DNA of 44,323 nt from contig JAQBQS010000009.1 of assembly GCA_028286885.1 (NCBI GenBank), positions 1 to 44,323 on the forward strand, written 5' to 3'. Numbering within the stretch: the stretch's first letter is position 1; every line of letters begins with the position of its first letter. The notes below the pieces were generated by a model. It searched no databases. It worked only from the letters and a program-made list of their open reading frames with translations, and was not told where the DNA came from. The DNA is from Patescibacteria group bacterium (GTDB taxonomy: Bacteria > Patescibacteriota > Minisyncoccia > Phycocordibacterales > UBA1006). Positions 113 to 1,351 of this stretch are shown here, piece after piece. Position numbers and translations under genes: made by a program.

Positions 113-1351
113 ATGCGACTTAGGCCCGAAGAGGGGGGTTATGACGAAAAGACCAGTCATTATTTACTCGCCTGCAACCTAAGGCTTGTTATATGGTGGT
201 CAAAAACTTATTATTTCTCTCCTAGTAATAGAGATAGGAAGGGGCTGAGTCTTTTAGATTACATTCAAGAAGGAAATCTCGGCCTAATAAGGGCCCTTGA
301 AAAGTATAATTGGAGGATTGCAAAATTTTCGACATATGCCACTTGGTGGATACGTCAATCGCTTAGAACAATTCAGCAAAACAGGACTGCGATTTATCTG
401 CCGGCACATATCCTTGAAAAGATGGCCAAGTACAAACGTGTTTTCGTTCAATATGAACTTAAGTACTCCAGAAAACCCTCACCGCAAGAAGTTTCAAAGG
501 AATCGGGCCTGACCGTAGAAGAGGTCTATCTTATTGAAAAAGTAAGAAGCCAGCGATTTGTTTCAATTTCCGGACCTTCATCATCAAGGGATGAAACTCC
601 TGATATGGAATATCTTATTCCTGATAGTCCCAAGTTGTCCATTGAGCAATCAATAGATAACAGTATTATCAAGAAAGAACTACAAAGGATTCTGAAGTTA
701 GAACTTAACCCAAAAGAGTATGGAATCGTATGCGCTCGTTTTGGATTAGTGGACGGAGAAGAATTTACAGGAGAAGAAGTTGCTCAAAAGTATGGAGTGA
801 GTCGCCAGAGGATAAATCAGATAGAAACAAAGATTAAAGAAAAACTTCAAAAAAATATTTCCTTCATTAATCTGGCGAGAAGGGAAAAGTATATCTCTCA
901 TGAAAAGTATCAACTGATTCTCAAAGAAATAGAAGCATCAAACGCAGTCAAGAATCCATTTGCGCTCGCGCCTGTGATTAAGCAGCAAGATGGTTTAATT
1001 AGTCATGATTCAGAAATCTTGGAAAAACTAGTGACGGGAGATATTGCAAAAAACGTCACGATTCTCGTGGGTTCGGCTACTGGATTCTCTTATGATGACA
1101 TCATTCGACCAGATCGCACTAAAAAACTCGTAGAAGCAAGACAGGTTGTAATGTATTTCTTACACATTGATATGAGGATGTCCTTTCCTAAAATTGGGGA
1201 ATCACTCGGCAATCGTGACCACACCACTGTCATGCACGGAGTTCAGAAAATCGAGGAGCGTTTAAAATCCGATTCTCAATTTTGTGATTATGTTGAAAAA
1301 ATAAGAAATTATTTACAAACAATGATGTCAGCCAAATTGGCTGCATTATAG
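113..1351 (+). CDS. Sigma70-family factor (regions 2-4) fused to a C-terminal DnaA domain IV (Bac_DnaA_C) HTH; true start uncertain
   Basis: Region 2 motifs NLRLV, LDYIQEGNLGLIRALEKY, KFSTYATWWIRQ; region 4 RFGL..GEEFTGEEVAQKYGVSRQRINQIE; C-terminal ARQVVMYF..SFPKIGESLGNRDHTTVMHGVQKIE matches the DnaA signature. Frame is open from position 47. Confidence 0.85.
   Translation: MRLRPEEGGYDEKTSHYLLACNLRLVIWWSKTYYFSPSNRDRKGLSLLDYIQEGNLGLIRALEKYNWRIAKFSTYATWWIRQSLRTIQQNRTAIYLPAHILEKMAKYKRVFVQYELKYSRKPSPQEVSKESGLTVEEVYLIEKVRSQRFVSISGPSSSRDETPDMEYLIPDSPKLSIEQSIDNSIIKKELQRILKLELNPKEYGIVCARFGLVDGEEFTGEEVAQKYGVSRQRINQIETKIKEKLQKNISFINLARREKYISHEKYQLILKEIEASNAVKNPFALAPVIKQQDGLISHDSEILEKLVTGDIAKNVTILVGSATGFSYDDIIRPDRTKKLVEARQVVMYFLHIDMRMSFPKIGESLGNRDHTTVMHGVQKIEERLKSDSQFCDYVEKIRNYLQTMMSAKLAAL

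Follow-up and report, generated by a model that had tools for sequence, protein, structure and literature searches.

Sigma factors are held to read promoters by their own regions, with extra specificity supplied by separate activators. Region 4 (sigma4) sits at the -35 element with its C-terminus toward upstream DNA; activators next to -35 touch sigma4, and the C-terminal domain of the RNA polymerase alpha subunit (alpha-CTD) contacts the UP element. Some extracytoplasmic function (ECF) sigma groups carry regulatory C-terminal extensions, which are not known to serve as DNA readers. Here, we analyzed an open reading frame (ORF) at positions 113-1351 of a 44,323-nt contig of a Patescibacteria group bacterium (GenBank assembly GCA_028286885.1, contig JAQBQS010000009.1), which encodes a sigma70 factor joined to the DNA-binding domain IV of the replication initiator DnaA. 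The whole stretch, referred to below as the window, is the entire contig C2 of genome G000, which comprises 845,730 bases in 16 contigs and is 93% complete with 0.07% contamination. As judged from sequence comparison, the sigma70-DnaA_C fusion is a real, rare and uncharacterized sigma70 variant that recurs in very divergent proteins. In G000, the ORF is the 3' 84% of a 483-codon gene into which a miniature inverted-repeat transposable element (MITE) of 244 bp has been inserted between sigma regions 1.2 and 2.1.

The sigma part of the protein resembles the group 1 and 2 sigma70 factors RpoD and RpoS. A probable region 1.2 (encoded on another contig), region 2, a weakly matching region 3 and region 4 follow one another in order, the top NCBIfam match is RpoD_Cterm (TIGR02393), and sigmaA and sigmaS of holoenzyme structures are the closest by fold. 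It differs from RpoD and RpoS in its score of 167.7 bits, far under the RpoD_Cterm cut-off of 354, in an altered region 4.2 helix, and in an added C-terminal tether with a second helix-turn-helix (HTH). The C-terminal part resembles DnaA domain IV (structures 1J1V from E. coli, 3PVP from M. tuberculosis, and 8BTG). Over 89 residues aligned with 8BTG and 1J1V, it keeps the Arg of the basic loop, the Pro of helix 4 and, in the recognition helix, the R-D-H-T...H pattern; unlike in DnaA, domains I-III and the AAA+ ATPase are absent, and the domain is joined to a sigma factor rather than to an initiator. MzaA of the MZA defence system (NF041931) also combines a sigma70 core with further domains, and its sigma part matches at E 4e-48. 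However, the window protein scored 164.9 bits against the cut-off of 800 for that family, and the extra part of MzaA is N-terminal.

An earlier note on this DNA, made from the sequence alone, had described one ORF with sigma70 regions, a linker and a DnaA C-terminal HTH without an AAA+ domain, and Pfam and NCBIfam confirmed this composition (Table 1). The Sigma70_r3 match was weak; the same stretch forms helices at residues 98-146 in an AlphaFold2 model and was aligned with the corresponding part of 11 other fusion proteins (alignment A1), which are 25-31% identical to the window protein. In the Pfam search on which the note had made the C-terminus depend, Bac_DnaA_C matched residues 317-380 at 69.2 bits (cut-off 31.5, E 3.2e-19), while no AAA+ or Bac_DnaA match was found in the 412-aa product. 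The HTH had been placed at about 1040-1310, and the NCBIfam alignment located it at 1052-1312, with residues 314-400 covering positions 350-436 of the 437-position DnaA model TIGR00362; the score of 72.3 bits against this initiator model did not reach its cut-off of 343.9. The motifs quoted in the note (RQRINQ, RQSLRTIQQN, ARQVVMYF, SFPKIG and GNRDHTTVMHG) were all present in the translation. The C-terminal 123 residues also matched the solved DnaA structures 8BTG (E 4e-12), 3PVP (6.5e-10) and 1J1V (1.8e-8).

The AlphaFold2 model, built with 12 sequences, had a mean predicted local distance difference test score (pLDDT) of 73.9. The sigma2, sigma3 and sigma4 helices were confident, as was the C-terminal domain at residues 309-411 (pLDDT 84-91), and the linker between sigma part and DnaA_C was about 60-65 aa long. 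The predicted template modeling score (pTM) of 0.31 made the packing between domains unreadable, with no confident contact among them. A Foldseek search with the whole model had only primary sigma factors and sigmaS, taken from holoenzyme structures, among its top 50 matches, a result uninformative on the C-terminal fold.

Sigma region 2 retains an intact FSTYATWWIRQ melting motif. The region 4.2 helix reads SRQRINQ, as against TRERIRQ in nine of the 11 further fusion proteins of alignment A1, and this alteration hints at a different -35 preference. The note had suggested a non-housekeeping regulon, and the protein is indeed not the housekeeping sigma factor: its RpoD_Cterm score is low, and a separate 437-aa RpoD with regions 1.1-4 is encoded on contig C16. 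The DnaA of G000 is also a separate gene, and both proteins are about as distant from the window protein as those of other organisms.

To find the fusion in other proteins, we scanned 1.84 billion representative sequences exhaustively with HMMER, which gave 69,688 matches, and looked at the best 150 of these. Among the 149 other representatives, 12 carried a C-terminal DnaA_C-like domain (phmmer), and 11 of these 12 passed the Bac_DnaA_C cut-off (P0206 fell below it at 18.5 bits). With more fusions found by further searches, the expectation that homologs would retain the fusion was borne out. Pfam placed Bac_DnaA_C together with Sigma70_r2 and Sigma70_r4 above cut-off in 13 proteins, namely all ten of a first set tested, P0131, and, from the further searches, P0270 and P0360. 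The number of domains varied: P0139 carried four DnaA_C copies and P0122 two, whereas P0360 had region 2, four region 4-like stretches and one DnaA_C. P0380 and P0427, of about 940 aa each, end in region 4 plus DnaA_C without region 2, and an N-terminal GHKL-ATPase domain was found only in P0380. The linker ranged from about 34 to 184 aa across the other fusion proteins, and the fusion representatives with figures shown stand for one or two sequences each. Ten other long sigma relatives were tested and none had DnaA_C; six of the ten had C-terminal extensions lacking a Pfam domain. On a FastTree phylogeny of the sigma part, which held 149 of 151 rows after removal of two with fewer than 180 aligned residues, the fusion label, borne by 14 rows, required 10 changes, compared with a mean of 13.6 after shuffling, and none of 500 shuffles gave a number as low.

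Many of the nearest sigma relatives (among them P0135, P0136, P0137, P0143, P0155 and P0252) have lengths of 695-1137 aa and carry Pfam-less C-terminal extensions. In P0129, a single predicted protein of 1245 aa, a helicase and HNH-associated repeats occur together with a sigma factor and RNase III.

A word-index protein search was swamped by RpoD, and PF08299 occurred only in the window's own protein among the best 120 matches; three of the best 120 carried PF08299 with profile A1 as the query, and seven of the best 120 with residues 265-470 of P0122. The architecture is implicit in domain databases, as the precomputed Pfam strings of the searched collection show it. In the architecture search proposed in the note, the fusion recurs in other proteins, and none was found in the sampled genomes, phages or plasmids. 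Profile A1 had no match in 400 genomes sampled from the phylum (E <= 1e-125) or 400 sampled from the class (E <= 1e-120), a scan that is weak evidence of rarity, with a threshold above ordinary RpoD scores, three candidates per genome and the window as sole positive control. None of the 136 phage records and 513 plasmid records that matched spanned at least 80% of the query. A profile A1 search of genomes and viral contigs listed 80 loci each, all sigma-only. A tblastn comparison of the C-terminal domain with loci L027-L198 yielded the window and, on L106, an unrelated dnaA, but nothing else, and in a metagenome scan with linker and DnaA_C peptides five loci had a DnaA_C match and none a sigma match. 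The ESM Atlas contained generic sigma clusters only. The note knew of no characterized protein with this architecture, and no description of one was found in the papers searched either; DnaA is unmentioned in the main text of two papers on sigma architecture (PMC11119718 and bioRxiv 10.64898/2026.10.08.757525).

A sigma gene joined to a dnaA fragment by faulty assembly or gene calling would give the same domain order, and the contig does begin in a repeat, which tangles the assembly graph. This repeat, however, is located at the 5' end of the ORF and not at the linker. In the Logan contigs of run X1, a single 4016-base contig of even depth (13) covered window positions 99-1500 without a difference, so that the join at the linker is not peculiar to this assembly; X1 is possibly the source sample, and the Logan contig is therefore not independent data. 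The stretch was detected in one DNA run and was next to absent from two others of the same study. The same domain order in 13 other proteins comes from other samples, and the dnaA of the genome lies elsewhere and is just 33% identical to the C-terminal part. With these observations, an artefact is very improbable.

We then examined the 5' end of the ORF. The first 28 residues of its stop-to-stop frame are encoded again at contig ends of C1 and C13, C2 and C1 share their first 127 bases exactly, and the repeat that begins C2 was found on eight contig ends at 100% identity. Comparison of contig ends with the genome by BLAST revealed a complete 244-bp element at G000:C15:81816-82059. Its left half terminates seven contig ends (C15, C6, both ends of C5, both ends of C16, and C9), and its right half opens seven others (C1, C2, C3, C4, C7, C8 and C13), giving seven copies with seven left and seven right flanks, all copies being 100% identical. 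A direct duplication of 9 bp (with matches 9-12 nt long) links six of the seven flank pairs and so pairs C15 with C3, C6 with C2, C5 with C8, C16 with C7, C16 with C13, and C9 with C1; the 3' end of C5 and the 5' end of C4 have no partner. The Logan assembly (k=31) contained a contig of exactly 244 bases at a depth of 77.8, compared with 13 for the gene, corresponding to about six copies.

This 244-bp repeat is a MITE. It shares with MITEs a length too short for a transposase, imperfect terminal inverted repeats (17 of 24 positions match), 9-bp duplications and seven identical copies. It differs from the typical setting in that no autonomous partner or further element with similar ends was seen in the 93% complete G000 and no copy was found in 40 relatives. 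Rfam gave no family at gathering score for the element, only two chance-level microRNA matches.

Of the 32 contig ends of G000, 14 are due to the MITE, and its duplications permit six pairs of ends to be joined. A second gene whose 5' end meets a MITE copy is a 716-aa ORF on the minus strand at the 3' end of C15 (L018 3665-5815), which opens with 20 MITE codons and weakly resembles MutS domain V (29.8 bits, just short of the cut-off of 30.2). The short ORF past the MITE on C3 is in a different frame from this ORF.

The gene before insertion could be restored from the two flanks. At the end of C6, an 80-codon ORF (L025 4640..4882) closes at a TAA three bases inside the MITE; its product (...LEIYFSELKKFPKLSYKEVEDFAKRLEEGG) shows a sigma region 1.2 pattern and terminates ...KRLEEGG before the stop. 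Past the MITE, the window continues via the duplicated nine bases in the same codon phase (...EEGGYDEK). In silico removal of the MITE and one duplicate gave a 1452-nt frame of 483 codons with no internal stop. Single alignments cross the junction in the restored protein (P0122, query 24-472; P0145, 28-457; P0259, 13-457), and restoration raised the bit scores with P0122 (from 171 to 186) and P0131 (from 159 to 178). Once the MITE is removed, the C6 fragment forms a continuous alignment with the region 1.2 part of the homologs. We tentatively assigned region 1.2 because of these junction-crossing alignments, the fragment alone having no Pfam match. The five start codons of the ORF (MRLRP) are MITE sequence, and the start at 113 is not the gene's own. 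The single uninterrupted ORF described in the note is therefore present as a frame, whereas its start is made by the MITE and the ORF is a truncated gene; for users of this genome, the annotated start of the sigma-DnaA_C protein is a MITE artefact.

Table 1. Positions of the sigma70-DnaA_C gene parts, protein domains and inserted element (window numbering unless a locus is named)
Feature	Position	Strand	Details
ORF as first read	113..1351	+	412 aa; bases 113-126 MITE-derived, native codons from 128
Sigma70_r2	173..364, residues 21-84	+	Pfam 43.3 bits (cut-off 24); FSTYATWWIRQ retained
Sigma70_r3	416..589, residues 102-159	+	Pfam 21.6 bits, under cut-off 25.3; weak
Sigma70_r4	701..853, residues 197-247	+	Pfam 40.9 bits (cut-off 24.1)
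Linker	854..1036, residues 248-308	+	helices 249-257 and 263-280, then low-confidence 281-308 (pLDDT <50)
DnaA domain IV-type HTH	1052..1312, residues 314-400	+	Bac_DnaA_C, TIGR00362, PDB matches, model
Native 3' part of gene	128..1351	+	407 codons + stop of 483-codon sigma70-DnaA_C gene
Native 5' part of gene	G000:C6, L025 4640..4867		76 codons; C6 fragment ORF
Promoter-like site	L025 4572-4600		TTTACA, 17-nt spacer, TATACT, with TG; 40 nt before native ATG
Terminator-like hairpin	1358..1386	+	11 pairs + T-run; after stop codon, pilT next
MITE right half	1..126	+	element positions 119-244; supplies ATG at 113
9-bp target-site duplication, right copy	127..135	+	left copy ends unique part of C6

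The split copy is probably inactive in this genome and not expressed as a working sigma factor. Translation of the 5' piece would halt inside the MITE, where a terminator-like hairpin would follow; on the + strand of the MITE right half, such a hairpin with a T-run lies at 70-85. For the 3' piece, a consensus scan found no promoter-like site on the + strand of window 1-112 before ATG 113, the sole promoter-like site of the MITE right half being on the minus strand (56 to 29), so this piece would have no outward promoter-like site ahead of it. These hairpin and promoter calls come from consensus scans, which do not show function, but they favor polar disruption. Alternatively, the MITE might give the 412-aa ORF a start codon and perhaps transcription, yielding a working truncated group-3-like sigma-DnaA_C factor. 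Group 3 and 4 sigmas function with region 1.2 dispensable, the native codons continue the frame of the ATG at 113, and all 407 of them are intact. However, an in-frame ATG has a one-in-three chance of arising, the same ATG opens just 67 and 73 aa at C1 and C13, and a terminator-like hairpin rather than a promoter-like site precedes it. The MITE copies are all identical and the insertion is therefore recent, so that the intact codons say nothing of selection. We regard an expressed 412-aa ORF as rather unlikely.

The gene is located in a region of deviating base composition. The GC content is 36-40% across window 1-1400 and 33-35% in the last 600 bases of C6, as against 50-57% in pilB, pilT and the next gene and contig averages of 45-48%; overall, the gene has about 38% and its neighbors about 52%. 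Pfam identified pilB (T2SSE, 382 bits) on C6, before the gene, and pilT (T2SSE, 130 bits) after it in the window. The two genes are adjacent, with gaps of 16-87 nt, in five of the six same-genus relatives examined. The sixth (G002, contig C54), the closest relative with a PilT 89% identical, has a 433-aa ORF upstream of pilT instead of pilB, and insertions may recur between pilB and pilT. In 40 relatives, eight of them of the same genus, no match covered sigma and DnaA parts together; each fell on the sigma part, where it was their RpoD at 36-43% identity, or on the DnaA part, where it was their DnaA. The sigma-DnaA_C gene is a low-GC, laterally acquired single-gene insert between pilB and pilT, and as such an insert, absent from the 40 relatives searched, it says little on the core biology of the organism.

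The 433-aa ORF of G002 (L215 1123-2424) is divergently oriented and belongs to no Pfam family. A transposase-like identity was considered for it and dropped, as Pfam found nothing.

The residues by which DnaA reads DNA are largely conserved in the window protein. According to PMC5043019 and PMC5742627, E. coli DnaA makes base-specific contacts through residues 399, 423, 432-435 and 438-439; Arg399 recognizes TTA in the minor groove and the helix starting at 434 recognizes TnCACA, and R399A and T435M abolish binding. Alignment with 1J1V placed the equivalents in the window protein at R335, P359, R368, D369, H370, T371, M374 and H375, and seven of the eight are identical, Leu438 being replaced by M374. 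Because of this identity, our best guess for the target of the DnaA_C head is a canonical DnaA-box-like site, e.g., TTATCCACA. The tandem DnaA_C copies and the recurring pair of region 4 and DnaA_C are consistent with a DNA-reading role. In the host, canonical boxes are found by dnaA, where four with at most one mismatch lie within 290 bp (C3:79432-79721) and an exact box lies on the opposite side at 81992; the cluster is the probable replication origin. One exact DnaA box also occurs in the window at 15639 on the minus strand.

On balance, we favor an accessory, group-2-like sigma70-family factor with a tethered DnaA-box reader, split and most likely inactive in this genome, and we give this somewhat better than an even chance. 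The interpretation in the note is partly supported; the RNA polymerase recruitment to DnaA-box-like sites, the tie to replication origins and the competition with DnaA that it proposed are still conjectural. The intact protein would bind core RNA polymerase and read the -10 and -35 elements via sigma2 and sigma4, while the tethered DnaA_C head would read a DnaA-box-like 9-mer upstream of -35. This upstream placement of the head follows from the direction of the sigma4 C-terminus, which faces upstream, and from a tether of 34-184 aa. The head would then act as a built-in activator or UP-element-like reader and confine the holoenzyme to box-flanked promoters. Such an arrangement would resemble the action of activators at -35 and of the alpha-CTD on the UP element, in that an extra contact upstream of -35 would raise promoter occupancy; unlike separate activators, the reader would be a covalent part of the sigma factor itself.

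Several observations weigh against this interpretation. No DnaA box with at most one mismatch was found in the flanks of the gene, and no candidate regulon was seen in a survey of DnaA boxes in the genome; exact boxes number 14 against about 7.6 expected, and they form a cluster only beside dnaA. Three fusion proteins out of the 11 in the alignment, P0125, P0131 and P0206, have degenerate contact residues. Well-supported branches of the sigma tree force at least three changes of the fusion label; the fusions are clustered on the tree, one origin is not established, and they may have arisen several times independently. The 80-aa C6 fragment matched no Pfam family by itself. With regard to the state of the gene, the MITE-supplied ATG at 113 could give rise to a truncated sigma without region 1.2, and a minority of cells might carry the uninterrupted gene; no empty-site contig was seen in the Logan contigs, which cannot show absence. 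No RNA runs containing the stretch were found. A Shine-Dalgarno sequence was unseen by eye at the native start, at pilT, at the MITE ATG and at the genome's genes, which makes the quality of the starts unjudgeable.

The head might instead serve replication, bringing RNA polymerase to box clusters at an origin for activation or priming, or competing with DnaA on behalf of a mobile element. The match of the contact residues to canonical DnaA, the canonical host boxes by dnaA and the lateral acquisition of the gene would suit such a role, and the tandem DnaA_C copies of P0139 and P0122 are reminiscent of a protein that reads arrays of boxes. However, the gene is a single-gene insert with no replication or mobility gene alongside, and no fusion was found in the phage and plasmid records or in the 80 viral contigs. 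Regions 2-4 are fully kept together with the melting residues, which a mere tether would not need. A role in replication is thus an unlikely explanation of the domain.

It is still less probable that the C-terminal domain does not read DNA at all but forms a module for cis-regulation or protein binding, which keeps the sigma factor inactive or docks a partner. The loss of contact residues in three fusion proteins would be expected of such a module, and long Pfam-less C-terminal extensions are frequent in related sigmas, as in the six of ten tested; extensions of this kind would also recall those of some ECF groups. The window copy, on the other hand, keeps seven of eight contact residues, tandem copies and the recurring sigma4-DnaA_C pair suit DNA reading better, and the model has no confident contact between domains.

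If the preferred interpretation of a sigma factor with a built-in DnaA-box reader is true, it would represent a new mode of promoter choice and a direct molecular bridge from the DNA code of the replication initiator to transcription. More speculatively, and with considerable doubt, sigma70-DnaA_C proteins might form a distinct class defined by a third, tethered head, one 9-mer vocabulary might serve replication and promoters alike, and sigma4 plus DnaA_C might be a portable two-HTH module outside sigma factors. Tests on this small, divergent and unstudied family would be easy, as the domain spans about 100 aa and the 9-mer is known.

Beyond the sigma gene, a type IV pilus gene cluster occupies window positions 1364-12000, in which pilT was assigned by Pfam. 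A 413-aa ORF at 2879-4120 resembles pilC by eye only. Across the 846 kb of G000, we counted seven Sigma70_r2 and eight Sigma70_r4 matches, which amount to several sigma-like genes for a small genome.

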